DNA of 64,000 bases from Macrostomum lignano (Eukaryota): positions 186,001 to 250,000 of the forward strand of contig NIVC01001203.1 of the NCBI GenBank assembly GCA_002269645.1, in the 5' to 3' direction. The translations under genes and the position numbers were made by a program. A model generated the notes under the pieces. It was given only the letters and a program-made list of their open reading frames with translations. It did not search any database and was not told the DNA's origin. Within the stretch, counting starts at the first letter, position 1, and every line of letters starts with the position of its first letter. Positions 3,253-64,000 of the stretch are shown piece after piece.

Positions 3253-3660
<408 letters not shown>

Positions 3661-4357: not shown

Positions 4358-4363
4358 TATAAA
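4358..4363 (+). promoter_or_regulatory. Candidate TATA box of glycosyltransferase copy 1
   Basis: TATAAA 187 bp upstream of the ATG. The surrounding sequence (TATAAATGT.C.CAGGG..GCAT.TCATGA) is conserved upstream of copy 2 at ~12770. Confidence 0.45.
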
Positions 4364-4544
4364 TGTACTCAGGGAAGCATTTCATGAGTCTCAACACTTC
4401 CGTGTGCACACAATAGGCTGCTGTAGCTGTTGGTTTGGCTCAGCTAGAATTATTAGTCAAGAGCATGGACACATTTACCTAATTTGTGGACGAAATTTGT
4501 TTAAAGTCTGTCATCATCATTACGCAAGCGCGAACACATCCGAA

Positions 4545-13193: not shown

Positions 13194-14727
13194 ATGCTAT
13201 TCCGAGGCAAGCTAAGAAAAATAATTTTCGCGACTTGCCTCCTGATGCTTGGCAGCCTTTCTCTAATGGCGTCACTGTTTGAAGATTTAAGTATCGACGG
13301 TGTGATTCTCGAAAAACAAACTACCAACACTGTTCCGTCCGCGCTGCACACTTTCTTACCGACTGTCTGTGCAAACGAGAGCTGCAGGCGACATTATGAA
13401 AATCACATGAGCGCAAGCGGCACTCTCCCGATACCGAAAATTCGGCACATTCTCTGGCGCAATGAGTTCATATCCGACTACTTCGCTCAGCAACTAAAAT
13501 CTTGGCAGAGAATTCATCCCGACTGGACCTACGTGCTGTGGCGCGACCAGGACCTGGAGCCATTCGTGGCCGCGAACTTCCCTGAACTACTGGACAAGTT
13601 CAGGTCGCTGGAGCTGAAAATCATGCGGATCGATATGATTCGCTACATGCTACTGCTCAAGGTATGTCGAAAATCGCTGCAAAAATAATTTTAAAAATCG
13701 GTTTTCTCCTTTGAATATCCTCGAGTACATATAGTTTAATGAATTCTGCTAAACTTCAATCAGAGGTGGATCGTCTAAAACTAATCACGCCATGTTCACA
13801 CCTTACACACAGGAATTAAGTCAGTCATAATGCCTTCTTGCTTCCTCGTCATGGCTGATGAACGGCAATAAATATTTACCCATGTATCACTACTGATACA
13901 CTGTAAATGTATGTGGGACAGACCTGCATGCACCTGGTTGTCGTGCGTTGCTACACCTAACATAACAAATTACATATGTCGAACTACCTTGCTGTGATAT
14001 TTGCATTCGTGCAATGGCCCTGAAAAAATCCTAATTCAAATCGTGACAGTTCGGCGGCGTGTACGCGGACCTGGACTACAAGCTGGTGCGAAGTCTGGAC
14101 GAGTTTCGTCGCTTCTACGCGGTGGTCACTCGCGAGCCGGAGACGCACTCGCTGCAGCTGTTCGGGCCTCACTGGCCGATAAGACCTGCGGCCAGTCCGG
14201 CCTTCCTCATGTCTGCGCCAGGGCACATTTTCTTCAGATTTGTGCTCAAGCAGCTGTCAAAGAGAAAGATTAGCGAAGACATACTCGCCTTTGCCGGACC
14301 TGAAGGTCTGACGATCACTTTGGAGCAGTACCAGATCCGTTACCCGCTGACAAACAACCCACTCGCAGGGGTGTACGTTCCGCCTTCGTTCAGCTTCTAC
14401 CCGTACGAGAACAACTCTCTGGACGGTGTGTCGAAACATTTTAAGGACTATCGAATTTTGAAGCTAGGCAAAAGTTGCAGCAAATTGGCTCGGTGGATTG
14501 ACCCCAGAATGTACTTTCTTCGGAAGGTGAAGAACCTGACGCAGCTGTGCTCAGACATGACTAAATTCAACGCGGTTACGGACTCGTCACCGCCTGTGTA
14601 CGCCATTCACGACATGCGAAAGAGCGGGACGAGCTGGGGTATCACTCACACACCGGAGTATTTTGCCAACCTGACAGAGATGGCAAAAATTGTGAAAAAC
14701 TTCAGGCTGGGTGGCAGTTTGTTATAG
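13194..14727 (+). CDS. DXD-motif glycosyltransferase (GT32-like), copy 2; exons 13194-13661 and 14050-14727, 381 aa
   Basis: Same motifs and the same 388-nt phase-0 intron as copy 1. Exon 2 protein differs by one residue (W>R). Confidence 0.88.
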
Positions 14728-33640: not shown

Positions 33641-33670
33641 TACTAATTGGTCTGCATGCCCTGCTGATTG

Positions 33671-36600
33671 ATGGCAACCATTAAGCGCAATTTCAAGAAC
33701 ATTGTTCATAATTATTCGGATGCCCAGGTGAAAGTTCGCGAAGCCACGTCAAACGATCCATGGGGTCCATCAAGTACTTTGATGTCGGAAATATCCGACA
33801 TGACAAACAATGTGATGGCCTACACTGAAATTATGTCGATGATTTGGAAACGATTGAATGATAAAAATAAGAACTGGCGTCACGTTTACAAAGCCCTGGT
33901 GCTGCTGGAGTACATTATCAAAACTGGCAGTGAGAAGGTGGCCCAGCAGTGCAAAGAGAATCTGTTTGCTATCCAATCGTTGCGGGATTTCCAGTACACA
34001 GAGGAGGCCAAAGATCACGGATTGAATGTGCGCGAGAAAGCCAAGCATCTGGTAGCTTTGCTTAAAGACGATGAGAAGTTGAAAGCTGAGAGGCAGAGCG
34101 CTATCAAGGCCAAGGAGAGGCTCAGGCACGGTGGCGGTTTCAGCTCTGAGGACAGGCCGCCGGACAGGTGAGGGTGGACAGGTTAGGCAGAGACAGGTGG
34201 ACAGGTTGAGTAAAGACATGTGGACAAGTTGGGTAGAGACAGGTGGACAGGGTGGGTAGAGACAGGTGGACAGGTTGGGTAGAGACAGGTGGACAGGTTG
34301 GGTAGAGACAGGTGGACAGGGTGGGTAGAGACAGTTGGGCAGGTTGGGTAGAGACAGGTGGACAGGTTGGGTAGAGACAGGTGGACAGGGTGGGTAGAGA
34401 CAGTTCGGCAGGTTGGGTAGAGACAGGTGGACAGGTTGGGTAGAGACAGTTGGGCAGGTTGGGTAGAGACAGGTGGACAGGTTAGGTAGAGACAGGTGGA
34501 CAGGTTGGGTAGAGACAGGTGGACAGGTTGGGTAGAGACAGGTGGACAGGTTGGGTAAAGACAGTTGGGCAGGTTGGGTAGAGATGGACAGGTTGGGTAG
34601 AGACAGATGGACAGGTTGGGTTGAGACAGGTGGACAGGTTGGGTAGAGACAGGTGGACAGGTTAGGTAGAGATGGACAGGTTGGGTAGAGACAGGTGGAC
34701 AGGTTGGGTTGAGACAGGTGGACAGGTTGGGTAGAGATGGACAGGTTGGGTAGAGACAGTTGGGCAGGTTGGGTAGAGACAGGTGGACAGGTTAGGTAGA
34801 GACAGTTGGACAGGTTGGGTAGAGACAGGTGGACATGTTTGGGACAATGGGACAACTAGGAGACAGGTAAGGTAAAAAGTTAGATGGACAAGAGAGACAG
34901 GTAGGAGACAAATACGAGTAGGTGGACATGCTTGGGTACAGATGGACAGGTAGGTGGCCAGGTTAGGGACAAGTTTGGAACAGGTAGTAGGGGAGGGGAC
35001 AGACTGTTGTACATAGATAGTCATGAAAAGGTTGTAAGCTAGATTTGAAATTTCCCACTCAGATCCCGCATGGAAGCGCAGCGCCGGTCTGAGTCCAGCG
35101 CCGCCACAACCACTGGAGGCGCGGCCGCGGCGCAGGAGGCTGAAGACCTGCAACTGCAGCTGGCCCTGGCCATCTCTAGGGAAGAGCACGAGCAGGAGCT
35201 GAAGCGGCGCGAAGCCGAGGGTCATAAAGAGGAGATAAAATTGAAGATGGCGCTTGAGGCAAGCAAGAAGGAAGACGAGGTAAGTTTTAAAGGCCGGCCT
35301 TGACTCGCTAACTGTTTTCAACACTGGGAGTTCGGGCCGAGGCAGTTCTCAACTCCGCTATAGAGCTGATTATAAGTGCAATATTTGTTTGTAGCTCTCT
35401 TTAAAGCTCCCACCGTCCCTGTGTTCAGGTTCTTTCCCCGCTTCGCATGCCACCCAAGCAGCAGCAACAGGAGAAGCTCGATAATTCAACTGTTGCTTTT
35501 ACAAAAGAAGAAGATGATGTAAGTTGAGAGCTTATAATCGGATTGAAGTAAATACACTGGTTAAATGATTGTTCATTATTGGAAAAGTGAGTATAATATT
35601 TTTGTAGACAAATTTGGAATTGAAATCTGGATTTTTATCACTGGCTGATAAAGAAACCTGTTCATTCCAAAGTGTGTGTGCGTGTGCTCAACACGATTAA
35701 AGTCCCTAAGATTTTTTTGATAGTCTTAACAGCATGGTCAAAAAAATTTTGAGAGAGAAATTTGATTCTGAAAGTCTCTAGTCTTGGAGTAAAGATTGCT
35801 AATTTTAATCTTTAATTTTTTACGTAGCAGCGACTAGGGCTTGGGTGACAACTCAAGCCTCTTGGAGTTGGAAACTTTAGCACAACATGCTCATCAAGAC
35901 TGAGGCTCCGTTGGCATGTACTGCGTGTACCGGCAGCGTCCTCGTTATGGGAATAGTTGTTCATCAACTTCATCAAGGCCTATAGTCCTTGCTCCAAAGC
36001 TTCTCGTGCAGTCTGGCTGTTGAAAACTGGGTTATGCTAGGCCGTTTTTGTTAAACCTGGCATAGTCAAAAGTAATGAGTAAAGGAGTAATGGCATTTAT
36101 ATATAGTGGTGTATCGGCCATAGACATTTAGCACAATAATACTTGGCCATACCAATAACTACTTCGGTAGAAGGTCGGGGAAAATACGTTTCTTAAAAAA
36201 CTGTTTATTATGAGACTGGTTTTTGCCGAAAAATACACTACAGAGATACAATTACAATCACAATTAATACGTACAATTAATTGTACGTAACAAAAAAGAT
36301 TAATATTGAATTCTAATTTTCTAAATTTATGAATAATAATAGAGCTGCTATAAGCAAGGCACAACACATCAAAAAGTGAGTATTGGATCTGCCTCAGTGC
36401 CTCCTATCAAAATCGACAACAATTTTTGTGCTGAAATAAAACTGAAAAGTTCCTATCTCCGTAGTCCGTAGAGACCAGCCAGCCTCAAACACCAGCCTCA
36501 AACATCAGCCTCAAATATCAGCGCGCCTCAAACACCAGCCTCAAACACCAGCCTCAAACATCAGCCTCAAATATCAGCGCGCCTCAAACACCAGCCTCAA

Positions 36601-45525: not shown

Positions 45526-46654
45526 GCTTGCGTGACCGACAAAGGCAGAGGCTTCTAACTAAAGGTTAGAGCAGAAAGGTTAGAGCTCTACTGGGGGGGG
45601 GGGTTAGATGCATCTCTCTCTCTCTCTCTGTCTCTATCACACTCGCTCTGATCTATCAGTCAAGTAAGCTTCGCTACTTTGCTTACTTATTCATATGCTC
45701 AAATCTTTTTTTGCTTCTTCTTTTCATCTGTCGGGTTCCGCCCGCCACTGGCATCGAGATCAGTATATGGGATTTCTATCCTCTCTCTTGGTGTCTACGT
45801 AACAGTATTGGTTGCGTTCCGAAGGCGTTGCTCCGGAGTGAATAATTACCATCACCAGAGCGTATATACCGCAATGGGAGGTGTCTTGACTCTTGTAGCC
45901 AAATAAAATGATTTTTTGCAGAGCTGTCTACTCCAGATTCTAGTTCCAAATCTCCTTGGCCATGGGCGGCCTCTCTTTATTCCTTCTTTCAATCTTCCTT
46001 CCTTTTACTTCTTTTGATTGCATGCGCCGCGCGCTGGGAAGCTAAGGGGTGCCCGGTGGCCGCTGCCACCGCCGCTTCCATCCATCGCTTCCTCGCTTCG
46101 TCTCTCTCACCACCCGCCCAAAACCCCCAAGGGAGGGAGGGCCCTCCAGCCGCTAAGTAAGCACAGAGCCTCCCTGCCAGTGTGTTCGCGCCGCTAGCCT
46201 CTCTCTCTCCGCGCTCTCGAGAGAGCCCAAGCCAACCGTTTTGTGTGTTAGTCAGCCCCCAGCCAGGCCAGCTAACCGCCAACTCTCAAGCCTCGGAAAC
46301 TCCTTGGGGCGGCGATCGACCAACCACCCCGCCCCCAACCCCCTGGCCAACCGCCGCCCCCCCCCCGCTGCCCCATCCTTTACCCTTCTTGTGCTGTGCG
46401 TGCGTGCGACGCAAGCGACAGGCCGACAGTTCGACAGCCCCGGCGACCCGACCGCCTCCCATCCCACCCCGCCCTCTCCTTCCCCCATCGGTCTTTCTAT
46501 GTTATATAGTATTAGTATATTCTATATAGCAGTGGCTACGAGTATTAAGGAAGGCCTGAGACGCAGCTTCCCAACCGCCGGACAAAGACGATCTTAAGAC
46601 ATTTGACGCGATTCCAAGAAATCTCCAGCGATTCTTAATACTTATCGTTCAGCC

Positions 46655-48649
46655 ATGAAATCCGACATGTATGTCGCTTCTTCAAAAAGCTCCGCTGCTG
46701 CGGCTGCTGCTGCGTCGACATCCGGGATGAGCAACAGCCACTGGCCTCTGCCTCTTCAGCAGCACCAGCTGCTACAACAGCAACAGCAGCAGCAGCAGCA
46801 CGCTCTGCTTTTAGAAGCTGCAGCTGCTTTGAGCCAGCAATACGCCTACGCTGCATTTTATCCACCAGCTTCCCAGCATCCTCTTTACCATCATCATCCT
46901 CAGCAACATGTGCAGCACAATCTCAGCCAAGTATTTCTGGCTCAGCAGCAACAGTTGATGCAGCAACATGAGCAGCTGTTACAGCAGTCTCATGTAATTC
47001 CATCGGCTGCAGCTGCTGCAGCCGAACTGCCGACGCCTCTGCAAACACCGGAGCCTTCGGCCATAGACAGCAATCCGGCCAGTCTCAAATCCAGCCTGCT
47101 GTCAATCATTGACCGTCTCAGAGAGCGCAAAGCTCGTCCAGACGCTGATCGGATCTGCTCGATGATGTCGCGGCAGCTTGGCCTGCCTCGGGAGACAATC
47201 GCGAGAGCTCTGGAACGCCTAGTAGAGGAGGGCGCGGTGCTGCGTGTTGAGTACAAGGGCTCGGTGTCATATCGCAATGCGGCAAAGTGGCGCAACAAAC
47301 TATCATCATCAAGTGCCAGCACCTGCTCAACTGGGGAGCGAACGATTCAAAAGAAGCGAAAGCAGACTCAAGCGACGGATTCTGCTCAAGCAGCAGCCGT
47401 CTCAAATTCCAGCTGTTCCAAAGCTGAAGTCAAAGATGAAGAGGTTGAGCCGTTTCAAGCTTTGGATCTGACTGTTTCGTCAGCTTCTGCTCTAGCGCGT
47501 GCGGTGGTCAAGACTGAGCACGCTGAGCAGCCTGGGGGCTATTTGAAGGACGAAGTTATCGAAAGTGAAGTCTTGAGAAAGTCTGTTGTCGAATCTCACA
47601 GAGATGAGCTTTCAATGGACTGTGCCATCGGCTGCACAGCTGAGCCTGCAGATGCGACCGAAGGCAGCGACTTGATGTGAGTCAGCAATAGACTTTATTT
47701 TGATGCAGATTCTTAATAATTCACCTCTTTTACTACTGTATCCGCCCCTCTGCACCGCCAAATACGCCCCTCCTATCAGAAGGTCCGCACCTCCCACCAG
47801 AAGATCCGCCCCTCTCATCAGAAGATCCGCCCCTCCCACTAGAGGATCCGCCCATCCCACTAAAGGATCCGCCCTTCCCTTCAGAGATCCGCCCCTCTAA
47901 CCAGAAGATCCGCCCCTCCTACTAGAGGATCCGCCCCTCCCACTAGAGAATCCGCCTTTCCCTTCAGAGATCCGCCCCTCTAACCTGAAGATCCGCCCCT
48001 CCCACTGAAGATCTACCACTCCCACCAGAAGAACCACCTCTCCCAGCAGAAGATCCGCTCCTCCTACCACAAGATCCGCTCCTCCTACCACAAGATCCGC
48101 CCCTCCTACCACAAGATCCGCCCCTCCTACCACAAGATCCGCCCCTCCACCCAGAAGATCCGCTCCTTCCACCAATTGTTCAAAGAGCTCCGCAAACTCA
48201 TCTTTAGCGAGCAAATCGAAGGACCTCAGCCAGCAAAAGCATACGACTGCAAAACTGTAGAAGAAGAAGAATCCGATACAGCAGAAGCAATCGACTCAGC
48301 AAAAGCAGCAACAGGCAAATCAGTTGAAGAGCAATCCGAAACCGAAGATCTGGACAATGCCGACTACTACGACGACGATCTGGACGACGATTCTTCCATC
48401 TACGACGTCGACGCATCCGCCTGGACAATCGAGGAAGTTGCCGACTGGCTCCGAGCTCGAGGATTCGCCGAGGCGGCGGCGGCTTTCCGGACTCAAGAAA
48501 TCGACGGCGAAGCGCTGATGCTGCTGCGCAGGGGCGACGTGCTGGCCTGTCTCGGCCTGCGGCTCGGCCCGGCGGTGAAGCTGTTCCAGTGCGTCTGCCG
48601 GCTGCAGGCGGCCAGCCAACTGCGGATACGCTGGGCCTGCGGCAACTGA
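46655..48649 (+). CDS. SAMD1: SAMD1/atherin-like chromatin protein (polyQ N-terminus, SAMD1-type winged helix, acidic linker, C-terminal SAM domain); exons 46655-47676 and 48208-48649, 487 aa
   Basis: IIDRLRERKARPDADRIC...LVEEGAVLRVEYKGSVSYRNA matches the SAMD1 WH as I recall it. WTIEEVADWL...FRTQEIDGEALMLL...LGLRLGPAVKL is a SAM domain. Phase-2 intron AT|GTGAGT ... TTTAG|C. Confidence 0.82.
47760..48170. repeat. 21-bp minisatellite (AGAAGATCCGCCCCTCCYACC) in the SAMD1-like intron
   Basis: Direct reading. Confidence 0.92.
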
Positions 48650-49897: not shown

Positions 49898-50153
49898 ACG
49901 GGTTGCAGCCGGGTGGTTAGAGCGACGGCCACTCACGACTGTAAGGTCGGGGGTTCGATTCCCAATCCCACTCGGAACAATTTTTGTCCTTGAGCAAGAC
50001 ACTTAACTGTGCAAGTTGCTTCAGTTCACCCAGCTGTAAAATGGGTGCGAGCATTAGCTGGGGTGATTGAAGATGTGTGTGGCGACCCCCCTCCAAGTCC
50101 TTGGACTGAACAGCCGTACGCAGCCTTCAGATGCGCCGCGCAATAGCTGCGGC
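49898..50153 (+). mobile_element. CORE-like SINE cut off at ...AATAGCTGCGGC by the Polinton-like insertion
   Basis: A and B boxes and CORE present. The tail found in the copies at 24540 and 38700 (TGAG[T/C]TGTCGG...) is absent. Confidence 0.88.
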
Positions 50154-50349
50154 AGTAGAAGGCATGAGGGGGCTTCTGGGACAAAATTTTTCACGTCCTC
50201 CATAATCCCATTAAATCCATTCATATTATCCCTGACAGAATCAGAAAAAAAGGGGGGTCGCACTCGCTCACAAAACGTCCTCCATAATCCCATTAAATCC
50301 ATCCATATTATCCCCGACAGAATCATGAAAAAGTGGATGAGTGAATGAA

Positions 50350-53300
50350 TGTCGCGGAATTCATTCATTCACTCATTCATTCAGTGCATATGTACCTGTG
50401 TGTACGGTGGTGGTTGTTTAGCCTAATATCGATTTATTTGCCGCTTTCAAACCACCCCCTCTGTTTGTGCGCTTTGCCGCCTCCCCCCGTTTTCCTACCC
50501 TTCTTATCTCTCTCCTAGCCTACCTAGCCCCCCCACCCCCAAATTTTCACTCACCATTTTTAATACAAAATATATTGACCGTGCAAGGCCTTTCGTGCCT
50601 ATCGTTTGTTTTTCCGTTGCTCATCCTAAAGTTAAAAAAATCGACTCCAAAATAACAACATGGCGCCCAATGTAAATTACTGAAGAATTCAACCTGGCTC
50701 AAAATCTAGCATTAGAAGCTCAGTTCGACTAGCCAAACTCGACCTCAACTCCGGCCCAGCTCAACATTCTCTGCAGTTCGCTGTTCTAGCCGTCTGCACT
50801 CGACAGTGGCTCGCTCCTGGTTCAACCGGCTTCTGCCGTGGCGGTCACGGTCTCCGCTCGACCACACCTGATTTCACATCATAGCACGGGCCAACTTCGT
50901 GACGTTCTGGAACCAGGGGCTCTCATCTAGATTCGAGCCGGTGCTGCTGGCTTCTGACTCTGCACGGCTTGCGGTAGATTGACTCTATGTGCTTGTTTTT
51001 TCGATGTTCTTTTTTCTATTCGCATACTACTCGTAGTTTGTCTCCTGCCCTCTTGTCCTCTCTTTTCCACCTTTGTCTCCGTTTGGTCGCTTAGACGTTC
51101 TTTAGTCGGGATTCTCGCTGCCGGTTTTCTCTGTGTTCTCGTTGTCGTTCGCATCTCAATCATGGTTCTCTCAGAAGATGAATTGGCAGCTGCTGTCCGG
51201 AAACGGGCGGGCATTCGGTCTAGCGTTACTAAAGCGGTCGGCAAAGTGCAAGTGCTGTTGGACAGGGGTTTGCAGAGAGAAGTCGAAGTCGCTGAGGCGG
51301 CTGCGTATCTCGAGGTGTTCAATTCGAAGCTCAGTATATTGAGGCAACTGGACGATGCGATAGACGAGTCTCTTGCAGATGAGCAGTTAGAGTCGGAGCG
51401 CGATGATTGTGAGCGCTATGGGCTGCAGTGTCTCACTTGCATCAAAAGGTTAGAAGCTGCTCTTTCTCGTAATTTTAAATCTCAGGCGAGTTCGCCTCCC
51501 ACTCAGTCGCAGCAACCTCAAGTCAAGCTCCCTAAGCTGCAGGTTCCCACGTTCGATGGGCAGGTTTCAACATGGCAATCATTTTGGGATCAATTCGATT
51601 CCTCGATCAATTCAAACACCTCACTTTCTGAAATTGACAAGTTTAATTATCTCGTGGCCTCTCTATCTGAGGCGGCAAAGTCATGCATTAGAGGCCTGGC
51701 TATCACTGCTGACAACTATTCCACTGCGGTGGATATTCTAAAAGAGCGCTTTGGCAAACCCGAGGTGGTTGTCAAGGAGTTAATGCATAAAATCTCGGAG
51801 CTTCGCCTGTCTGATGCATCCCTGCGCTCTCTGCAGCAATTTCACGATGACATTTCTGCTGCCATGCGTAGCCTGAACGCTCAGGGTGTCTCTGCCAATT
51901 CTTACGAGTCACTTTTGGTTCCATCGCTGATGAGCAAGTGCCCATCAGCCTTCCGGTTAGAGCTCCTGAGAGCCGCGCAAATGCAGGGATCGGACATTAA
52001 TTCACTGGAGAGCCTCTTGCGATCGCTAAAGCAGGAAATTACGGTTCGCGAAAGTGCTGGGCAAGGGCAGTTCCTGAGTTCGAAAGAGTCGACGAAGTCC
52101 TCATCACCTGCTGGCTCTAGCAGTAGCAAAGCTTCTCCACGGCATTCGTCTGTCTCGACTCTGGTGACACTTCAGCCGAAGGCGTCCAAACAGGCCTCTT
52201 CGAAGATCTTCTGCACCTACTGCAAAGGCTCACACTCGTCTGAGTCCTGTACCAACCTCGTTTCCGCTGATCAGAGACGGGCCTTTCTTGCGTCTGAGAA
52301 GCGCTGCTTTAGGTGCTTGCGCCTGGGACATTTGGCACCTCAATGCAAAGATCCGAGACCATGTCGGGGCTGCTCAGGTAGACACCATGTCAGCATCTGC
52401 ATTAAAAATTCACAGGCAGGCAGGGAGTCAGATAAGCCATCCACGTCCGCCAAGAAACCAGCTTCGCCGCCGAATCAGTGCTTAGCATCTGTGACAGAGT
52501 CTTTTGCCTTCACAATGTTCATTTCTGACAATCCGGCAGTGGCTCTGCCCGTTGCCAAAGCCATTTTGCTCAGCACAGATGGTCGCCGGGAAATGATGGT
52601 GCGTGTTCTGTTTGACACGGCCAGTAATCGCAGCTACATTCGTCAGGACATTTGTGACCTGCTGGGCATTCAGGCGAATTCACTGGAACGGCTTAACGTC
52701 TCGTCGTTTGCTGGAAACAGCACGGCTCTGCAGTCTGGTAGTGCTAACATCGCATTACGCAAAATGGATTCTTTCGAAGTGATCCAGATTCGTACAAATA
52801 TCGTCGAGACAATATGTCAACCACAACATTCAGTCAAAGTGACAGGGTTCGAACACCTGCACTCTCTAGATTTAGCGGATCCATACGATCCTCGGGATCA
52901 GCACACGCCTATATCTATTCTAATAGGCTCAGACTTCTATTACCAAATCGTGGGTGACACGGTAGTGCGTGGAGACTCTGGCCCAGTGGCCATCTCATCA
53001 AAGCTGGGGTTTCTATTATGCGGCCCCCTCGCTACTGGCATCAACAATACATGTAGTGCTAGTATAGGCAACTCGATCGAGTCTAGTGTTCCCAATGAGG
53101 ACACCTGCGCTTTAGCTCTATGCTGCTCAGTTTGCGAGAATATCTCACTGGACGCTTCACACACACGAGACATTTCGACTCTCTGGAAATTAGAGTCTAT
53201 TGGGGTCCTAGATGATCCGGGCCCCAACTCGGAGTCCTCGTTTCATTGCAATCCTCAGCTTCGGGATGGACGCTATTCCGTCCAGCTACCATGGTCTCTG

Positions 53301-56300
53301 CCAAAAGAGTCCATTATGCTCACTGACCACTCTGATTTGTCTTTTCGGCGACTGATATCGACCAGACGTCAACTGGAACGCGATCAGACTAAGCTGGCCC
53401 AGTGCGAAGCCATCATCGCAGAGCAAGAGGCTCTTGGCATCATTGAGAGAGTCCCTGTTAGTAACTCTAGTAGTAGCCTGATTCACTATCTTCCTCACAG
53501 CTGTATCTCCAAAGCAGAAAGTGAGCACACAAAACTTCGCATTGTGTTTGATGGGTCAGCTCGAACTCATTCAGCTGACTTTGCAATTAATGACCTACTT
53601 CAAGTTGGTCCGACGAATTTTCCGCAAATTCCACAAATTCTCATTAGGTTCCGAATGAAGCCGATAGCAGTCTTAGCTGACATCGAAAAGGCCTTTCTGC
53701 AGATTGGCATTGAGAAGAGTGATCGGGATTCGCTCCGTTTTCTCTGGACTCAGGGTCAGTCGGGTGCTCAGGAGGTTATTCATTATCGGTTCTGCCGTCT
53801 GCCCTTTGGGCTTACGTGCTCGCCTGGGGTGCTTCGGGCAACCATTTTGCACCATCTCGAACTGCACCAGAACGATTTTCCGGGTGTTGTAGACACTCTG
53901 AAACAGGATCTGTATGTAGACAATCTAGTTACTAGTTGCGACTCTGTAAAGGACGCAATTTCGCTCTACGAACAAGCGAAGCAAGTTTTTAGCTTAGCAG
54001 GGATGAACTTGAGACAGTGGCAGTCAAACTCTGATGGCTTTACAGCCCACTTGCCGGTGGCAGACGTCAGCAAGGCTTGTAAGGTTTTAGGCCTACCTTG
54101 GGATGCCCAGACAGACACGCTTCACTTTAACTTTCGCTCACTGCTAGATTCCATCCCGGATCGACCTCACTCGAAGCGGTCAATGCTCGCCGTTCTTGGC
54201 AGAATTTTTGATCCGCTTGGCCTTCTGTCACCGGCTGTGACTATTGTCAAGATTTGGTTTCAGCAGCTGTGCAGCCGGAAATTGACGTGGGACGAACAGC
54301 TTCCTACTGACATTGCTTCGCAGTGGTCTCGCTGGCTGACCTCGCTTCAGGAGACGCACCTGACCGTTCGCCGTTACGTGATGCCAGACACTGATGAAGC
54401 CGATCACCTTGAGGTTCAACTGCATGGTTTTTCCGACGCCAGTGAGCGAGCATACGCCGCTGTCGTCTACCTTCGGGTGATTGACCATGTCCGTCGCAGT
54501 GCCTCAACTGTTCTTATCATGGCGAAGTCTCGCATCGCTCCTCTCACAGTCATCAGCATTCCTCGTTTGGAGCTTCTTGGAGCGCTGATTCTGGCTCGGT
54601 TGATGGACTTCGTTTCCTCACAATTTCCGGGTGTACGGAAACAGCTGTGGACCGACAGCATGACCACACTGCAGTGGATCACCCAGGAAACTCGAATTCG
54701 TCCAATCTTCGTTCACAATCGTGTCACTGAAATTCGCAGACTTTCCTCGGTTGTGGATTGGAGATATGTCCCGGGGGAGAGCAACCCAGCAGATATTCCG
54801 TCCAGAGGTTGCTTTCCCGATAAGCTTGTGAGCAATCCTATGTGGCTGGACGGCCCCTCTTTCCTGCACTCTTACGAGCTTCCATATGACCCAGGCATCG
54901 AAATTTCCGAAGAACTATCAGTCGATTGTGCTCCAAGTGGTCCGGCGAAGCCTGACCAGCATTATTGTCTGGCCACAGCAGAGATCGGTGACGAGGGAAA
55001 CCAGACTCGCAATCTTCTTCAGATCTTGAACATTCACGACTACTCGTCATGGCCGAAGCTAACTCGCGTGGTTGCCTGGGTGCGCCGCTTCATCAGCAAC
55101 GCGCGAGCGGCAGCAAAAAAATCCACCCAACAACAGCAGAGGTCTCTGACTACTGCAGAAGTTGTCGACGCAGAAACGTCGATTCTTCGCGCTGCTCAAC
55201 AGATTTTTCTTGGGCCAGAACTCAAGCACTTACAAGGTGCTGGTCCTCGTACGCCACTGGTTCAACAACTGCAACTCTTTCTTGGCGACGATGGACTCAT
55301 CCGTTCCAAAGGGCGGCTCGCTGATGCCGTGCCTTTTGATACGAATCACCCCGTGCTGATTCCTGGGAAGACACATATTGAACTGCTCATCATCCGGCAC
55401 TGTCACCTGGCTGTTTTCCACGGGGGAGTGCCTGCAACTCTGTGCAAAATTCGAGAACGCTTTTGGGTTTTGAAGGCTCGGCAGCGGGTGAAACAGGTTC
55501 TCTCTACGTGTGTGACGTGCCGGAAGCTTCAGGGTCAGCCCTTCACGGTCACTCAGGTTCCACAACTTCCTCCGTTCCGTTTGTCTGATATCAGAGCCTT
55601 TCAGACTGTGGGATTGGACTATGCTGGTCCGATCTATTATCGGACGGGGGAGGGTGACAACTCTGCTAAGTCGTATATTCTTCTTTTCACATGTGCAGCG
55701 ACTCGTGCTGTGCACCTTGAGTTGGTGACCAGCATGGGAAGCGATCAGTTTCTGCATGCTCTGCGCCGCTTCGTGGCGCGTAGAGGCATTCCGTCAATCG
55801 TTAGCGACAACGCCAAGACCTTCCGTGCAACTGCCAGGGTGATCGGTGCTGAAGTGTCTAAGGAGCTTCAGGAGTTTTGCACGTCGAAGCGAATCACCTG
55901 GCACTTCATTCCTGAGCGGGCCCCGTGGTGGGGAGGTTTCTGGGAGAGGTTGATTGGAGTCATCAAGATAGCCATTAAAAAAGCCGCCGGTCGTCAGTTA
56001 TTCACGTACGATCAGTTATTAACTCTGGTGATGGAAGTGGAGGCGGTTGTCAATAGCCGTCCGCTGCTGTATGTAGCGTCAGGAGAGACGATGGAAGTCA
56101 TTACGCCGTCTCATTTTATTGTGACAGCTCGTCTCACTCAGGAGCCTGAAGTCAGTTTGGGTCCTGAACTGATGTTGCCTTTGCCTCAACGGTTCAAAAT
56201 GCTCCGTGCAGCCTTGAACTGGTTTTGGGACCAGTGGAAGGGATCATATCTCGAAGCTCTCCGCGAGAAGTCGTCTAAGCGTCATTCGCAAGGTCGCTCA

Positions 56301-57219
56301 CCGACGGTTGGTGAAGTGGTACTGATTTCGGGCGAGCCCCGGCAACCCAGGTTCCATTGGAAGTTAGGGGTTGTCGAGGAGGTCAAGGCAGGTCGCGATG
56401 GAGTTGTTCGCTCTGCGGTCGTGAGGATTTCGGGAGCGGGTGATCCCCGGCGACGGGAACGTCTGAGGCGACCCGTTCAAGCTCTCATTCCGCTCGAATT
56501 CAAAGTTCCCAACTAAATTTTGCATCAATCCTCGGCAGTTTGTTCTCAGACAGCGCTATTTGCTTGTGAAGTTTAAGCGCAAGTCATTATTTTTTTCTTT
56601 TTTCTTCATAATCTGTCGTTTTGTTTACTCAATAACCTGTTGTGCTCAAAAAATCTTTTTCATTGATATTTCCTATTTGTTCAACTCAGCCTCCTGCTCA
56701 TATTTATAACGTTTAAAATTTAAACTTCGAGCGTAAAAGTATAAATTAACGTATGAAAACATTTATTCATTCGTAGTTTCGGTTTTGCTGGGTGGTGGTT
56801 AATGCTCAATTAGTCTTTGCTATTTTCAAACATGCCCAAATGTTTCCGAGTTCATTCATTCATTATAGTTCATCCATTATCGCAAATGACAAGTCATTTG
56901 GGGGAGTGTCGCGGAATTCATTCATTCACTCATTCATTCAGTGCATATGTACCTGTGTGTACGGTGGTGGTTGTTTAGCCTAATATCGATTTATTTGCCG
57001 CTTTCAAACCACCCCCTCTGTTTGTGCGCTTTGCCGCCTCCCCCCGTTTTCCTACCCTTCTTATCTCTCTCCTAGCCTACCTAGCCCCCCCCACCCCCCA
57101 AATTTTCACTCACCATTTTTAATACAAAATATATTGACCGTGCAAGGCCTTTCGTGCCTATCGTTTGTTTTTCCGTTGCTCATCCTAAAGTTAAACAAAT
57201 CGACTCCAAAATAACAACA
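50350..57219 (+). mobile_element. Full-length BEL/Pao LTR retrotransposon; LTRs 50350-50660 and 56907-57219
   Basis: TG...CA LTRs with only three differences seen. PBS TGGCGCCCAA(T)GT at 50661 resembles the tRNA-Lys 3' end. PPT GGGGGAG precedes 56907. Single intact polyprotein. Confidence 0.95.
51162..56516 (+). CDS. BEL/Pao gag-pol polyprotein, 1784 aa
   Basis: Gag LPKLQVPTFDG with three Cys/His knuckles; protease LFDTAS; RT LYVDN; RNase H LHGFSDASERAYAAVVY; integrase HCHLAVFHGG..CVTC, GLDYAG, SDNA, FWERL. Confidence 0.95.
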   Translation: MVLSEDELAAAVRKRAGIRSSVTKAVGKVQVLLDRGLQREVEVAEAAAYLEVFNSKLSILRQLDDAIDESLADEQLESERDDCERYGLQCLTCIKRLEAALSRNFKSQASSPPTQSQQPQVKLPKLQVPTFDGQVSTWQSFWDQFDSSINSNTSLSEIDKFNYLVASLSEAAKSCIRGLAITADNYSTAVDILKERFGKPEVVVKELMHKISELRLSDASLRSLQQFHDDISAAMRSLNAQGVSANSYESLLVPSLMSKCPSAFRLELLRAAQMQGSDINSLESLLRSLKQEITVRESAGQGQFLSSKESTKSSSPAGSSSSKASPRHSSVSTLVTLQPKASKQASSKIFCTYCKGSHSSESCTNLVSADQRRAFLASEKRCFRCLRLGHLAPQCKDPRPCRGCSGRHHVSICIKNSQAGRESDKPSTSAKKPASPPNQCLASVTESFAFTMFISDNPAVALPVAKAILLSTDGRREMMVRVLFDTASNRSYIRQDICDLLGIQANSLERLNVSSFAGNSTALQSGSANIALRKMDSFEVIQIRTNIVETICQPQHSVKVTGFEHLHSLDLADPYDPRDQHTPISILIGSDFYYQIVGDTVVRGDSGPVAISSKLGFLLCGPLATGINNTCSASIGNSIESSVPNEDTCALALCCSVCENISLDASHTRDISTLWKLESIGVLDDPGPNSESSFHCNPQLRDGRYSVQLPWSLPKESIMLTDHSDLSFRRLISTRRQLERDQTKLAQCEAIIAEQEALGIIERVPVSNSSSSLIHYLPHSCISKAESEHTKLRIVFDGSARTHSADFAINDLLQVGPTNFPQIPQILIRFRMKPIAVLADIEKAFLQIGIEKSDRDSLRFLWTQGQSGAQEVIHYRFCRLPFGLTCSPGVLRATILHHLELHQNDFPGVVDTLKQDLYVDNLVTSCDSVKDAISLYEQAKQVFSLAGMNLRQWQSNSDGFTAHLPVADVSKACKVLGLPWDAQTDTLHFNFRSLLDSIPDRPHSKRSMLAVLGRIFDPLGLLSPAVTIVKIWFQQLCSRKLTWDEQLPTDIASQWSRWLTSLQETHLTVRRYVMPDTDEADHLEVQLHGFSDASERAYAAVVYLRVIDHVRRSASTVLIMAKSRIAPLTVISIPRLELLGALILARLMDFVSSQFPGVRKQLWTDSMTTLQWITQETRIRPIFVHNRVTEIRRLSSVVDWRYVPGESNPADIPSRGCFPDKLVSNPMWLDGPSFLHSYELPYDPGIEISEELSVDCAPSGPAKPDQHYCLATAEIGDEGNQTRNLLQILNIHDYSSWPKLTRVVAWVRRFISNARAAAKKSTQQQQRSLTTAEVVDAETSILRAAQQIFLGPELKHLQGAGPRTPLVQQLQLFLGDDGLIRSKGRLADAVPFDTNHPVLIPGKTHIELLIIRHCHLAVFHGGVPATLCKIRERFWVLKARQRVKQVLSTCVTCRKLQGQPFTVTQVPQLPPFRLSDIRAFQTVGLDYAGPIYYRTGEGDNSAKSYILLFTCAATRAVHLELVTSMGSDQFLHALRRFVARRGIPSIVSDNAKTFRATARVIGAEVSKELQEFCTSKRITWHFIPERAPWWGGFWERLIGVIKIAIKKAAGRQLFTYDQLLTLVMEVEAVVNSRPLLYVASGETMEVITPSHFIVTARLTQEPEVSLGPELMLPLPQRFKMLRAALNWFWDQWKGSYLEALREKSSKRHSQGRSPTVGEVVLISGEPRQPRFHWKLGVVEEVKAGRDGVVRSAVVRISGAGDPRRRERLRRPVQALIPLEFKVPN

Positions 57220-57599
57220 ATCCCTGACAGAATCAGAAAAAAAGGGGGGTCGCACTCGCTCACAAAACGTCCTCCATAATCCCATTAAATCCATCCATAT
57301 TATCCCCGACAGAATCATGAAAAAGTGGAGGGGTCGCACTTGCTCCGAAAACTTCGAAGATAATCGTATTAAATCCATCCATATTATCCCTGACAGAATC
57401 AGTGCATAACAGATGTCCACTAACACCTGTTATGTTCATTGACACCGACATCCACCCATAGCATCTTCGAAACAATCAGAAAATAATCTGCATTCTTCTC
57501 CCCACATTCAATCCAAAGCGGTGAAACCAGATCCCAAAGACTTTAAATCATCAGCGCAGGGTCCTTACCCTCCAAAAAAAACTAAATTCTCAATAAAAA

Positions 57600-57839
57600 A
57601 TGTTTCCAGTTGTCTCTCCAGGTTCTTATTATACTCAGCCTAATCCATTGTACAAATCCAAGTACCGATGCAAACTTGAATGCAGCGAGTACATGAGAAA
57701 ATATTGGCCCGATGTTGATATCAATGCCCCTAATATTAATCTAGCTCTCCAAAGACACTGGTTTTATAAGTATGGAGTAACCTATGTAAAAGATTACGAC
57801 AGCTACTATAACTTTGCAGAAGTTATAAGGCAATTGTGA
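57600..57839 (+). CDS. 79-aa Tyr-rich orphan ORF of the Polinton-like element
   Basis: A-rich leader (AATAAAAAATG); its stop lies 4 bp from the convergent capsid stop. No recognised motif. Confidence 0.45.
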   Translation: MFPVVSPGSYYTQPNPLYKSKYRCKLECSEYMRKYWPDVDINAPNINLALQRHWFYKYGVTYVKDYDSYYNFAEVIRQL

Positions 57840-57843
57840 TTTC

Positions 57844-58707
57844 TCACATTCTCTCAATGATTAACGTCAATACAAACTCTTCACCGTTGAAATCAACACC
57901 CATCCCATCTTCAGTCTCAAACTGTAGCACAATCTCGTGAATCTCCTTATTACTCAATACAACTCTTTTCACTGGATTTGGTTTCTCTACCACCATCTGT
58001 CCTCCAGCTACAGAGTTGGAGATATTGTACAAAATATTCGTTCGCTTTCCCTTAAATACCCAATCAAGACTGAGATTACTTCTGATTAGAATATTCAAAC
58101 CCTTTACAATGTCTGCAATATTGGGTGCTAAGAACAAACCGCTTACATTTTCCCGGGCCATTTTAACAGTCCCCGATGCTTGAGTGGCGGTCCGCGCCGC
58201 GGATTCTGCCTTATAAACTTTCTTCTCGAATCCCAGTTCCCTATACCAAGTGTCATCTTTAAACTCAACCTCCGCATCTTTGTGAACTTGCATGACCACT
58301 CTCATTACAGTGAGATCATAGGTTAGTTTGACAGGGAACAGTTTCTTCTCTGGCTTACTCGCATCAGGTGTCTCAAAATGACCTCTCTTAGTAAAGACAT
58401 TTTCTAGAAAGTTATTGTAGGTATCCACACTTTGCGTGCTCACATGGAATACCACAGGGTCTGCTGCTGCACCTTTCCATTTGTAATAAAACTTATTATT
58501 TGCTGCCATCACATTGGGAACGTTTGACCAACCAGTAAAGTCGTTAAGATAGACATGGTAATTAGCACCTGGATCCAGGCGAATCGCCTGCTCTAATTTT
58601 TCAACAAATATCCCGTTTGAGTCATTAATTCGCCCGGTTATTGTAATAGGAATGCTCTCCTTAGAGTGTGAAACAATGTTGTTTAGTCTTTCGGCTATAG
58701 CTTCCAT
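57844..58707 (-). CDS. Polinton/adintovirus minor capsid protein (penton, single jelly roll), 287 aa, intact
   Basis: Spaced motifs IRLDP..Y, PNV...NNKFYY, LGF, IHEIVL...DG..VDFNGEEFVLTL typical of Polinton mCP. First ATG in AAAAAAATG context at 58707. Confidence 0.82.
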   Translation of the reverse strand: MEAIAERLNNIVSHSKESIPITITGRINDSNGIFVEKLEQAIRLDPGANYHVYLNDFTGWSNVPNVMAANNKFYYKWKGAAADPVVFHVSTQSVDTYNNFLENVFTKRGHFETPDASKPEKKLFPVKLTYDLTVMRVVMQVHKDAEVEFKDDTWYRELGFEKKVYKAESAARTATQASGTVKMARENVSGLFLAPNIADIVKGLNILIRSNLSLDWVFKGKRTNILYNISNSVAGGQMVVEKPNPVKRVVLSNKEIHEIVLQFETEDGMGVDFNGEEFVLTLIIERM

Positions 58708-58728
58708 TTTTTTCACATAAAAAAATAT

Positions 58729-59217
58729 TTAAACTTTACTGGATGAATTGTTGATCATGTTAAGCTTCACCTTCCTCTCAAATGCATAGACAATGTACAG
58801 GTCCACGGGTGTTGCGGCAGTCCTTTCAATGTTAGTCACGATATTCACAGGGCTGTTATCAGTAGGCATTTGTCTGGCAGACACATCAGCGCCAAACATC
58901 GGATATAGAGTTCCATATTGAAGAGCAGTGATAGCAATTCCATTGTTCTCTTTCACAGCCAAGTCGACTAACTCGCTGTAAAATTTGCTAATCTTGTTCT
59001 GACTGAAATCTCCATTTTGTGGCAGTGCAGGGTAAAGATTATCACTGATTTCATGCTGAATGGACCGCACGTCTCCATGCATGTAGCGTATAATGCTATT
59101 TGGGTTTCTCATATTAATAATAATATACCTTGGATTGCTGCATGATCCCTCTTTAATGCAGATGTTTGTTCTAGTTTCGTTTCGCTCATCTCGACACATG
59201 TAGGCCGTGTATGCAAC
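58729..59217 (-). pseudogene. C-terminal part of Polinton/adintovirus major capsid protein (double jelly roll), split by the Gypsy LTR
   Basis: PRYII, YP...NGDFSQN...FY, ADVS, YIVYAFERKVKLN at the C-terminus. The frame stays open upstream of the listed Met (VAYTAYMC...) up to the LTR edge. It lies 21 bp from the mCP start on the same strand. Confidence 0.75.
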
Positions 59218-62200
59218 TGTAACGGTTTGGAAATTCTGTAATTCAAATCTAGTTTATTTACATGGTGTATTTTAACTTTATTCAAATCCTTAGCTGTTTA
59301 GATTACGTGCGTAATTATTCTAGGGTTTTAATATTACGTATTTTGTTAATTTGGTTTTCGTTTCCAAGAAATGCGACTCATAATTTTAACATGTAGTTTC
59401 TAGTCTTTTTCTGCAAGCGTGTGGCAGCCTGGGACGTAGATCAACCTAGCATGTACGTGAGATACAATAATTATAATCAGAGCCGATCACCAGTGTACGC
59501 ATTCATACTAAGACAGTAAGATTTCTTATGCTCCGAGTATAGTAAATCGTCCAGGACTGACAGACGTATCTGCTGAACCATATACGTTGCTAATACTCTC
59601 TCTTCGCTAGTAATATTAAATATACCGGACTCGTTACATCAATTTGGAGGTCCCACCACCGAACTCTTCATATCAGTCATCATCATCAGGCGTCCGTCAG
59701 CATTCAGGCTCCCATCCTCATCAGGCACTGCGACACGAGAATTTTGGCCGGGTACACAATAGCCATCTGCAACCGCAACCAGGTCCTACACTACAGTATT
59801 GCGGCGAGGCTGAGGCAGCACAATTTCGTTTCAACTTGTCTAAAACCGCGTGAGTCAGCTCTACATCTAGACCCAAGGCCAAGCGAAAACAGTCAATACG
59901 TTCGTAGCTACGGCGCGTCAAAACCCCAGCCGGTCAACTCAGCGTAAACAACACTCAACTGTTCTGAGGCCCGTATAAGCTGCCGACTGAACCGCGAGAC
60001 CACCACCCCAGCGGCAGCCACCCCTAAAAGCCACAGCCAATCCGGTCCAAGCGGCAGTACGGCAGGACGGCAGTCTGTACATTGTACTCCACGGCCAATA
60101 ACCTCCAAGAGTTTCATCACAGTTGTGAGTGTGGTTGCTTCATTTTGGGCTGTTTAGCTGAGCTTACCTGGCTGTTCAAAGGTGTGTACGCGTGTAGGTT
60201 TTTTTCTTCCTTTCCTCTCTGTAATCTTAGTCTTCACTTTGCACTGGCACACCTCTTTTTTCTCTCAATATGTCTGTAGAGCAATCAGCCACTGGAACTC
60301 AAGGCGCACCTCTGGTGGGTGAACCCATAAAGCTGCCTGAGACTGAGAAGGCTCAAAATGAAGCCGAGTTAAACCAAATTGCTACTGAGAGTAGCGTGGG
60401 TGCTATTTTAGGAAGTCTTGACAGAACGCTGGGCAACTTGGATGCTAAGCTTGACTATGCGAGAGTGCCTGAGGCAAAGCTGAAAGCCCCACCTTGCTAC
60501 CACCCTAAAATCAGATTTGAGCTCTGGGAGACACAACTCCGGGCCTATTTAAGCGTTAACAGAGTTCAGCGGGAGCACTGTGGCGGTGTTCTTTTCTCTC
60601 TACTATCGCCAGAAGTCCAAGAGTTTTACTACAATAGCAAACTACAGGATCTAGCTTTTCCAGCAGCATTAGAAGCTCTCCGCGAGCGGTACACGGACTC
60701 TAGCAGTGCCGATAAATTTTACATTGAGCTGACAGTTGCCCACCAAGCTGATGGCGAAGGAATTCAAGAATTCTGTGACCGTCTTGTAGCCCTAGCCACC
60801 GCAGCTAAAATTTCTGCTCCACACAGCGATCCTTTGGTTCGGTCACGTTTTTGTTATGGAGTTCTAGACAAAAATCTAGCTGAGAAACTAATTACAATGA
60901 CCCAGGAGTCACCCAAAGCAACCCTTCAAGACCTCCTGAAGAAAGCCAAAAGTTTTCTAGACATTCAGATGCTGCTGAAACCGACTGAGACAAGCAAGAT
61001 CCGGCAGTTAGAAGTAGACGAGATAAGCCGACTCAAAAACAGGATCCAAGAACTTGAGACAGAAGCCAAGCAGAGGGGCAAGTTCGAACACGAATTTAAT
61101 AGCCAGCCTACTGGGGGATTTAGACCACAGGCTTTGCACACTGCCACTGATAAACCACCGAGGTACAATGCGCCTATCACGGGCAGGCACGCAGGCAAGC
61201 GGCACTGCTTCAGGTGCGGTTCAGCTGATCACCTGGTAGCAGAGTGCCCTGGCTCAGGTGCACCTGAAAACGGTAAATTTTCATGGCGCCACCCGAGGCA
61301 GCCCATACAGAAAGGCTCAGCTAAAGTGGAAAAAGAGCTGGGTAGAATTTCCTACTGGTCAAATGCCTACGGATTCATCCAGTCTCTGCCTCTGGGAGAT
61401 TCTGTTTTCGTACACTTCTCGCAGCTCAGCAGCGAGTTAAAGGATCTTGTCCCCGCCCATCAGATTGTCGGAGCGCCCGTAGAGTTTATCCGGCTAGCCG
61501 ACAAGGGCAAGAAAAACGACCGTGCTGTTGATGTTGTGTGTAGTAACCAGGATGTCCGGTGCAGCCAAACCGTGTCTAGGGCAGAATCCTCCAGCTCCGG
61601 GTACTACCTGCAGGCCACTGTGGGAGACATTAAGCTGATTGGGTGTCTAGATAGTGGTTCAAATGCATCCATCATCAGCCCAGAAATTCGGGACAAACTG
61701 TTAGCAGCCGATCCTATCAATAATCGCTTCACGGCTGCAACTACAGTGCAGTCAGCTTCGGGATTCAATGGTGCCTCCAGCCGAATCCTTGGCAAGTTAG
61801 TTTGCGAGGTTCAAGTAGCGAATGAGACAAAGCCGCACGTTTTCCTAGTCATAGAACACTCGATCTCCGACACTCTCTTTGGGATCGACTTCATGCGGAA
61901 TTTCCAGATTAATTTATTGGTGGCAGAGGGTCGAGCGACGGCTGGAGGTGAGCTTATTCCTGTCATCGAAGGGGACAGTAGCATCTTCCAAGTCAAGAGA
62001 GTGCTGGCGGCTTGCAATGTCGAACTCCCGCCCAGGTCGGAGACTCTAATCCCTGGGAGGGTGATAGACAGTCAGCCTAACACCTGCGGCTCCGTGGGTG
62101 GCAAGATTTTTGCGAACGACTCGAGCCTCTTAATAGCACACTCGGTAGACCAAGTAAACAGTTCCAATCACATCTTGCTGCGGGTCTTAAACACCAGTGA

Positions 62201-64000
62201 AGAACCAGTATCACTCAGAAGAGAAGATGAAATGGGATCCTTCCAGCAGTTGGGGCCAAACGAGACAATCAGTAAAACTTCAATTTCTGAAAAAGACTTT
62301 AAAATCGAAAACACTGATCAGCTCCTTAGAAAACTCAATCAGCTGCCTAGTCCAGATGAAGGTACAGCGAAGTGGCTATCAAACCAGTTTCGCCTAACGG
62401 AGTCCAAACTCAGCGAGGAACAGTTGGGAACTACACTGAAAATGCTTAACTATTTCTTAAGTCAAATCTCTCGTAGTGAGCACGATATCTCGAGAACCCA
62501 ATTGCATGAACTAGCTATCGAACTGAAAGACCCTAGCTGTAGGCCGATCACGCAGCCATCACGCCGCACCACCCCGGCTCAAAAAGATTTCCTTGACAAA
62601 TATATAGAACAGCTAGTGGAGCAGGGCATAGTAGAAGAGTGTGATTCCGAGTGGGCCTCACCAATTGTCTTAGTCAAAAAGAAGGACCAGTCTTACAGAA
62701 TGTGTGTTGACTACAGAGCGGTCAACAAGCTAATAAAGCCGTGTAGCTTTCCGCTCCCATTAATGGATGAAACGTTTGATAGCCTTGCCGACTCTACCAT
62801 CTTTTCAACACTAGATTTAACAAGTGCATACTGGCAGGTAGGAATTAGAGAGCAAGACCGAGACATTACGGCTTTTTCTTGCCCCCAGGGCACATTCCGT
62901 TGGCGAGTTGTGCCATACGGTATCAAAACGGCACCATCTAACTTTGCTAAGCTGATGCACCGTGTGCTCAAACCCTTGCTGATGAGAGTTAGCCTCGTCT
63001 ATCTTGACGACGTCATTATCAAAGCTCGAACTAGTAGCGAAATGATAACAAACCTAGCGCTGGTGTTTTGGCAACTACAAAAGGCAAACCTAAAAATTAA
63101 GCCAGCAAAATGCGAGCTTTTCAGGGAAAAACTAAAGTTTTTAGGATTTGTAGTATCGGCGGATGGAATCGAGACGGACCCCAGCAAAACAGAGGCCGTC
63201 CAGAGTTGGTGTAGGCCAAAGACAGGGAAACAACTCTTGTCATTCTTAAATTTTGCCAACTATTACCGTAAATTCGTGCCAAAATTCTCGATCATAGCAG
63301 CTCCACTGTACGCTATCGCTAACTCCGATAGGTTTCACTGGGAAGAAAAGCACGAAGAAGCTTTCAAACAGTTAAAGGACAGTCTCTGCAATCCTCCAAC
63401 CTGGCGTACCCGGATATGCGTCCAGAAGCCGGCCCCTTCGTGCTAGACTGTGACAGCTCTGGCCTGGGGGTGGGAGGAGTCCTGTCCCAGGTTGGCAAAG
63501 CTGGTAAAGAGCATGTGATAGCATTCGCTTCGAAGAAGTTCAACAATGCACAAAGAAATTATTGTGCAACAATGCGCGAGCTGCTCGGTTTGATTATCAT
63601 GCTAGAGCAGTTCCGCACTTACCTCTTAGACAGGCCTTTCGTCGTCCGAACTGACGCCGTGGCGCTTAAATGGCTTCATTCCAAAAAACACGCTACGGGA
63701 ATGCTAGCCCAGTGGCTTGTGATCCTAGAGCCTTACAACTTTAGCGTTGAGCAGACGCCGCTGGAACGCTTGGCAGACTTTGACTTCTCCGTGGAACATA
63801 GGCCTGGGGAGAGCCACATTAATGCCGACATTCTCAGTCGCAATCCCAAATTCCGTCCGGACCATTTCGACTGCCCATCTTGCTCTCGTATTCCAGAGTT
63901 TCAGGCCAGGTTCGGATGCCAAAGTAGCGCCGTTAGAGCCGTTAAAATAGGCTGTGCTAAATTAGAAAAGCACGAGGCTTCGACTCAAACCGAAGGTACA
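59218..64000 (+). mobile_element. Ty3/Gypsy LTR retrotransposon, 5' part; 5' LTR 59218-59638; runs off the window
   Basis: LTR TGTAACG...CGTTACA; PBS TGGAGGTCCCACC at ~59645, complementary to the tRNA-Gln 3' end; gag-pol downstream. Confidence 0.93.
60270..64000 (+). CDS. Gypsy gag-pol: Gag, CCHC knuckle, cold-shock domain, protease, RT, RNase H; one frameshift near 63400; incomplete at the window end
   Basis: CFRCGSADHLVAEC; YGFIQ..VFVHFS; CLDSGS; RMCVDYR; YLDDVII. After the shift, LAYPD..FVLDCDSS..GGVLSQ..RNYCATMRELL..HRPGESHINADILSR stays open to 64000. Confidence 0.9.

Follow-up and report, generated by a model that had tools for sequence, protein, structure and literature searches.

We analysed 64,000 nucleotides of the Macrostomum lignano genome (assembly GCA_002269645.1, contig NIVC01001203.1, positions 186,001 to 250,000; G000:C1203:186001-250000), in the following called the window, which contain the left part of a Polinton/Maverick inserted into a short interspersed element (SINE). 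Numbers above 64000 are contig positions minus 186000; the Polinton begins at 50154 and extends 17.6 kb beyond the window end. The 5' part of a tRNA-like SINE (49898..50153, + strand), which has five relatives of 78–89% identity in the same window and by eye the look of A and B boxes, breaks off at TGCGGC (50148..50153, +), and its sisters at 38470 and 24296 read on from there into TGAG, as the original prediction had noticed from the window sequence alone. Directly after TGCGGC the Polinton starts with AGTAGAAGG, and its right end, CTTCTACT, finishes at contig position 267587 (81587). A second copy of TGCGGC follows immediately (G000:C1203:267588-267593, that is 81588-81593), forming a 6-bp target site duplication (TSD), and then come TGAG and the remaining SINE tail (from 81594), which is 86% identical to the tail of a sister SINE. 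The predicted Polinton/adintovirus-like identity, with terminal inverted repeats (TIRs), TSD and an interrupted SINE, was thus verified by termini, gene set and TSD, and everything expected past the window, namely the rest of the major capsid protein (MCP) gene, ATPase, protease, pPolB, integrase, CTTCTACT, TGCGGC and the SINE tail, was found downstream.

The TIRs start with AG and end with CT (AGTAGAAGG...CCTTCTACT). On the left the TIR lies in two pieces: the outer one (50154..50337, +) comprises AGTAGAAGG and tandem repeats with units of 82–84 bp, close to the ~85 bp originally noticed, and is 98.4% identical to the right terminus over 184 nt, while the inner one (57220..58014, +) carries a 79-aa open reading frame (ORF; 57600..57839, +, present in both TIRs) and the 3' end of the penton gene and matches the right end with 93.8% over 804 columns. 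The TIR measures ~870 bp in this copy (right TIR ~80718-81587) and 691 and 873 bp in two uninterrupted sisters. After subtraction of nested elements the Polinton is 16.2 kb long, and seven sisters range from 14.9 to 18.9 kb; the family is intronless and multi-copy.

Two capsid genes lie next to the left TIR, and the small ORF, intact penton-like gene and 3' part of a hexon-like gene that had been described are indeed present. Since Pfam was uninformative for the penton, for the 3' piece of the MCP and for the catalytic piece of pPolB, predicted folds and homologs were required to assign them. The intact minor capsid protein (penton) of 287 aa (57844..58707, −) gave a model with pLDDT 77, whose top structural matches were the mavirus penton (E=6.5e-9), adenovirus penton bases and Sputnik. 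VIA-align, which is independent of Foldseek, returned six chains from PBCV-1, adenovirus, mavirus, Sputnik and EhV capsids at Z 11.2–13.1 with root-mean-square deviations of 3–9, the next row scoring 7.4. By its model the protein is therefore a predicted single jelly roll that folds like virophage and adenovirus pentons. The 3' part of the MCP gene (58729..59217, −) matches the 3' end of an intact 428-aa ORF in sister copies, and the 5' part follows at 67433-68234 (−) on the far side of a Gypsy element. The model of the sister MCP (pLDDT 91, pTM 0.89) matches the MCPs of Sputnik (E=4e-18, TM 0.66), iridovirus, PBCV-1 and mavirus at 10–12% identity. Both models thus bear out the proposed jelly-roll check against virophage-type capsids. 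The term hexon-like holds as far as an MCP is meant and fails as to adenovirus size: the modelled protein is predicted to be a 428-aa double jelly roll of the type found in virophages and nucleocytoplasmic large DNA viruses (NCLDV), not an adenovirus-size hexon. PF21738 is carried by 58 of 62 aligned MCP members, about a dozen database relatives exceed 40% identity, and the remaining long matches lie at ~30% or less; Pfam itself gave nothing useful on the penton and the MCP 3' piece.

Further to the right follow a ~400-aa ORF in pieces and a 126-aa ORF (68265-69816, +), the ATPase (70014-70814, +; Pox_A32, E=7.5e-7, above cut-off), a 269-aa ORF together with a hydrophobic ORF (70831-72470, +), the protease (72475-72876, −; Peptidase_C5, E=1.6e-4, above cut-off), pPolB (72962-76831, −, assigned by homologs), a protein X-like ORF (76956-77414, −; Adeno_PX, E=4.7e-7), the integrase (77431-78425, −; rve, E=1.3e-5 on the N-terminal piece, below the curated cut-off) and a phospholipase A2 (PLA2; 78456-78956, +; Phospholip_A2_4, E=2.4e-13). 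PLA2 (166 aa) and Adeno_PX (152 aa) are two separate ORFs on opposite strands, with no PLA2X fusion. A natural 415-aa piece of pPolB found 507 homologs at E<=1e-30, many of them with PF03175; the nearest full-length one is ~46% identical, and of the 120 homologs listed the few with a name belong to a sea slug, a coral and a leafhopper. This catalytic piece gave no Pfam match and none of the pPolB pieces matched PF03175, and a sequence search of the PDB with a pPolB piece returned chance matches only. A Pfam scan of the 806-aa N-terminal piece of pPolB revealed no OTU family, and none of the element ORFs matched gasdermin in Pfam. The hydrophobic ORF (237 aa) matches only unnamed clusters of the ESM Atlas, with Atlas recognition below threshold. 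Frameshifts affect pPolB, integrase and two further ORFs of this copy, in addition to the interruption of its MCP; in many copies the integrase is an open ORF of 345 aa. A variable region with ORFs of 125–273 aa adjoins the TIR, on the left or on the right depending on the copy (C14, C616, C986, C2523, C110).

Every Polinton hallmark that we looked at was found (TIR, TSD, pPolB, rve integrase, ATPase, protease, MCP, penton and size), and nothing plausible remains against the identity of the element as a Polinton.

The original prediction mentioned neither of two long terminal repeat (LTR) retrotransposons that split this copy, and its description of the genes as tightly packed was wrong, as 6.9 kb of the 9-kb interval (50350-57219) are a BEL/Pao element. 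This element (50350..57219, +) sits in the left TIR and has LTRs at 50350-50660 and 56907-57219, differing by one substitution and two one-base indels, and a gag-pol ORF of 1845 codons (50979-56516) with Pfam matches to Peptidase_A17 (E=1.6e-45), DUF1759, reverse transcriptase (RT) and rve. It is flanked by a 110-bp target duplication (50228..50337, +; second copy 57220-57329), and its left junction is abnormal in that a 12-nt filler (50338..50349, +) is an inverted copy of the start of its own LTR; weak Rfam matches to miRNA sit on the hairpin at this junction. The same junction is found on contig C3867, a duplicate of the same locus, while five other sites of this LTR, occupied by BEL or a solo LTR, have 5-bp TSDs. 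With one clean and one abnormal end the insertion looks like a one-ended integration completed by host repair. The second element, a Gypsy LTR retrotransposon (59218..67432, contig 253432, +) with RT, protease and RNase H, the TSD CAAC and LTRs of 421 bp (the first at 59218-59638) differing at one position, is inserted in the MCP gene, which for this reason stops at 59217 and leaves this Polinton copy broken. Since each LTR pair shows a single substitution, both retrotransposons are recent, and both were likely inserted after the Polinton. Within the Gypsy gag-pol ORF (60270-63446), residues 365–423 between zinc knuckle and protease match a cold-shock domain (Pfam CSD, E=2.8e-4, below cut-off), which to our knowledge is unusual in a Gypsy element.

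To the family as a whole belong 346 exact matches of the 22-nt terminus in the genome, against none for the reversed control, which corresponds to ~170 elements, some of them on duplicate haplotypes. Genome searches with the penton, the integrase and the pPolB piece gave 135 (92–100% identity), 117 and 101 scored matches, respectively, and three of the 101 lie in open frames of at least 1250 codons, the length of the full polymerase. Capsid genes are ~98% identical between copies. The family is therefore young and abundant in this genome, and it is also present in contigs of four sequencing runs from other datasets; no related locus was found in viral contigs. Exact 6-bp TSDs flank all eight paired copies first fetched. 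Among 23 further pairs from the terminus list 16 are exact, two have one mismatch and five lack a 6-bp match, and two additional pairs gave one near match and one mismatch. Some Polintons are inserted within other Polintons (G000:C27:369430-406463, C217:253406). The recent activity that had been deduced from the intact penton holds for the family, on account of the 346 termini, the 92–100% penton matches and the ratio of nonsynonymous to synonymous polymorphism (pN/pS); it does not follow from the penton of a copy that, like this one, is frameshifted and interrupted by two LTR elements.

For intact ORFs from 31 regions pN/pS was 0.10 in penton (n=26), 0.125 in MCP (23), 0.09 in ATPase (16), 0.07 in protease (10) and 0.15 in integrase (8), values that are indicative only, because the ORFs are related and were chosen for intactness. 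Penton and MCP lie in a similar range to ATPase and integrase. The capsid genes are kept under selection. Eight full copies, picked via penton or TIR matches, are up to ~4% apart in capsid, protease and pPolB, and for ATPase and two nearby ORFs they carry alleles ~15–25% apart that assort independently. Thus the window's copy and that on C14 differ by 1.5% in ATPase and by 23.5% in a nearby ORF, while the ATPases of six other copies are ~20% away. The copies are, in other words, mosaics.

Some copies differ more drastically. In seven of 40 scored matches an 80-bp internal piece of a SINE replaces ~35 bp near the right TIR (80533-80612 in the present copy), at five different insertion sites, and four other aligned copies are without it. 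The five sites mean that a copy with captured host DNA kept transposing. Four copies (G000:C633:134497-147606, C1584:127375-135893, C2140:107247-122715 and C276:289398-300645) contain the capsid arm a second time in inverted orientation (1.75, 4.75, 4.85 and 6.2 kb; 99.3–99.9% identity) where the replication arm would be. They are without integrase and PLA2, have little or no pPolB, and carry exact 6-bp TSDs with different outer flanks. The duplicated arms start exactly at the terminus, two of the four stop next to the same 20-bp tandem array, and in one copy two switches are seen, of which one lies at a short shared motif. A bias towards the capsid arm is not established, because three of these copies were found by paired penton matches and one in the terminus sample. 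In the copy on C2140 a 4.4-kb tyrosine-recombinase retrotransposon with RT and integrase-family matches and split direct repeats, which we take to be Ngaro-like, lies at the penton/MCP boundary in both arms (L057:4100-8540, L058); copy C110 has an insertion with an ORF that looks similar by eye. The layout resembles that of the copy-back or snap-back defective genomes of linear viruses, which have an inverted arm duplicate, have lost replication genes and keep both termini. A mobile copy-back subfamily was considered and rejected, the one junction searched being single-copy among 40 scored matches. No description of copy-back Polintons or of the present family was found in the literature searched, many subscription papers and Repbase being outside its reach.

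In the standard Polinton model the element excises, is copied as free linear DNA by protein priming, is packaged and re-integrates. Applied to the present family, the integrase would excise and insert the element, and pPolB, primed by protein at the TIRs, would copy it by strand displacement. Then MCP and penton would assemble, the ATPase would package the DNA and the protease would mature the particle, and PLA2 together with protein X may help entry. Template switching in the free phase could give rise to variable TIR lengths, gene-by-gene mosaics and arm-duplicated defective copies, and intact copies might mobilise the latter in trans. Taken directly from the data, the termini, TSD, gene set, folds, copy number, capsid selection, mosaics, SINE piece and arm-duplicated derivatives are in our opinion quite probably explained by a 16-kb capsid-encoding Polinton/Maverick that entered a SINE with a 6-bp TSD and was later split by the BEL/Pao and Gypsy elements. 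Its family, young and with ~170 copies, likely passes through a stage of replicating free linear DNA and is likely packaged into particles before re-integration; in this explanation the window's copy is a passenger and not a source. Virus particles are likely still formed by the family, to which intact folds and purifying selection point only indirectly. A more far-reaching proposal, which we regard as tentative and rather doubtful as a whole, is that the family represents an animal Polinton virus which currently cycles and forms particles, and which during free replication yields copy-back defective genomes that are integrated by intact helpers. The four arm-duplicated copies would then be fossils of defective interfering genomes, and host SINE and retrotransposon DNA would be ferried along.

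Several findings weigh against free replication and packaging as the best explanation. Besides the choice of ORFs behind the pN/pS values and the five TSD pairs without a match and two with a mismatch, selection on the capsid genes could stem from a recent infectious ancestor and not from present virions, gene conversion between chromosomal copies can also yield mosaics, and all eight full copies are frameshifted in pPolB, with 82 one-base indels there and none in penton and MCP. These indels are mostly private deletions with a patchy distribution. Short-read contigs of the four runs lack several one-base gaps of one assembled copy, a comparison in which private mutation and assembly error are not separable; assembly error is the likely cause, with real decay as the alternative. 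The element might be an intracellular self-synthesising transposon only, its capsid genes being conserved remnants from a recent invasion, without any present production of particles. The copies are all very similar (1–4% apart in capsid and pPolB), as expected from such an invasion, singleton variants of the capsid genes (21:20 and 24:33 synonymous to nonsynonymous) are less skewed to synonymous changes than shared ones, and viral contigs contain no relative. The shared, inherited variants are nevertheless strongly synonymous (36:11 and 46:12), and ATPase and neighbouring ORFs have at least two old alleles each found reshuffled across the copies; this fits a long-lived recombining population, so that we consider a transposon without particles unlikely.

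With respect to template switching the main rival is that chromosomal events following integration, either gene conversion or TIR-primed repair, and not free replication, produced the arm-duplicated copies and mosaics. The single-copy junction agrees with this, TSDs would survive an internal rearrangement, and the tyrosine-recombinase retrotransposon present in both arms of the C2140 copy means that this copy likely passed a chromosomal stage. On the other hand, the arms are 99.3–99.9% identical with an exact start at the terminus, two of the four end at the same 20-bp array, one copy has two switches with one at a short shared motif, and the SINE piece demonstrates that copies can reach new sites after having been altered. 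A chromosomal origin is therefore a real possibility that we hold to be somewhat improbable. That the nested structure and the palindromic copies are artefacts of long-read assembly might be suspected from an imperfect assembly with high-copy repeats, duplicated haplotype contigs (C3867, C187) and many one-base indels. However, matching TSDs with different outer flanks occur at the Polinton, at the Gypsy element and at all four palindromic copies, and the BEL and right junctions are both seen again on separate contigs, which makes an artefact very improbable.

Taken by itself the locus, in which a SINE harbours a Polinton and the Polinton two LTR elements, is an ordinary case of nested repeats. 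A preference of the Polinton for SINEs was rejected, and the SINE target looks like chance, because a SINE was present in the 200-bp flanks of none of the 23 other terminus pairs. At the SINE, ARAGORN found no tRNA and Rfam no RNA family above cut-off; its middle (49990-50045) may resemble the CORE domain of MIR-like SINEs. A host SAMD1-like gene with SAMD1_WH and SAM domains (46607-48649) ends ~1.2 kb upstream of the SINE, and an epsin ENTH exon lies at 33668-34171. Two near-identical gene copies (4347-6081 and 13173-14727), by eye with the look of a glycosyltransferase, each adjoin a SINE copy and represent a local segmental duplication. Positions 1-3261 consist of a 271-bp satellite, followed by many minisatellites.

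The family is more interesting than the locus, being a test ground for virions and for defective genomes born in replication. For the question whether animal Polintons form virions, ~170 near-identical copies, capsid selection and many open integrase frames make this a good place to seek free genomes and naturally occurring particles. In the sequences of the arm-duplicated copies and the gene-level mosaics, traces are preserved of the way in which pPolB replication and template switching may operate, and the mobile SINE piece is a route for moving host repeats.

In comparison with known systems, the family resembles Polintons/Mavericks (Orthopolintovirales) and the adintoviruses in having pPolB, rve integrase, FtsK/A32 ATPase, adenain, double jelly-roll MCP, penton, PLA2, a protein X-like ORF and TIRs in 15–19 kb, the same gene set as described for adintoviruses by Starrett et al. 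(PMC8502044). According to that work Alpha modules carry a PLA2X fusion, in contrast to the separate PLA2 and protein X ORFs here. Measured against it, PLA2 alongside a polymerase missing PF03175 in Pfam is a Beta-like trait, although many close homologs do carry PF03175. For insect polintons, core genes in TIRs, polB-less copies and mobile transposable element cargo have been reported (Igolkina et al., bioRxiv 10.1101/2025.02.07.637071), which makes gene-bearing TIRs, polB-less copies and cargo less novel here; in that preprint, these are gene-bearing TIRs of ~2 kb in full-length insertions with LINE or LTR cargo, whereas in the present family the arms extend to 4.8–6.2 kb and take the place of the entire replication arm, and a piece of SINE forms the cargo. 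Elements of this kind occur widely across invertebrates, flatworms among them, and only a minority show recent amplification of near-identical copies (bioRxiv 10.1101/2025.04.19.649669). Nematode Mavericks have been proposed to form virions and to carry cargo (bioRxiv 10.1101/2022.07.12.499685), and they share with our family the core genes, the lack of introns and an MCP model matching Sputnik and PBCV-1 capsids. A fusogen, in contrast to nematode Mavericks, was not among the Pfam matches here, without a dedicated search, and host-gene cargo was not seen. Mavirus and Sputnik virophages and adenoviruses provide the best structural matches for penton and MCP, and protease and protein X families are common with adenovirus; the present family differs from them by only 9–13% sequence identity, by its 428-aa MCP and by being a multi-copy chromosomal family with TSDs in an animal. 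Finally, the arm-duplicated Polintons share the layout of copy-back genomes and differ from these in being integrated with 6-bp TSDs, and we infer for them an origin in free replication.

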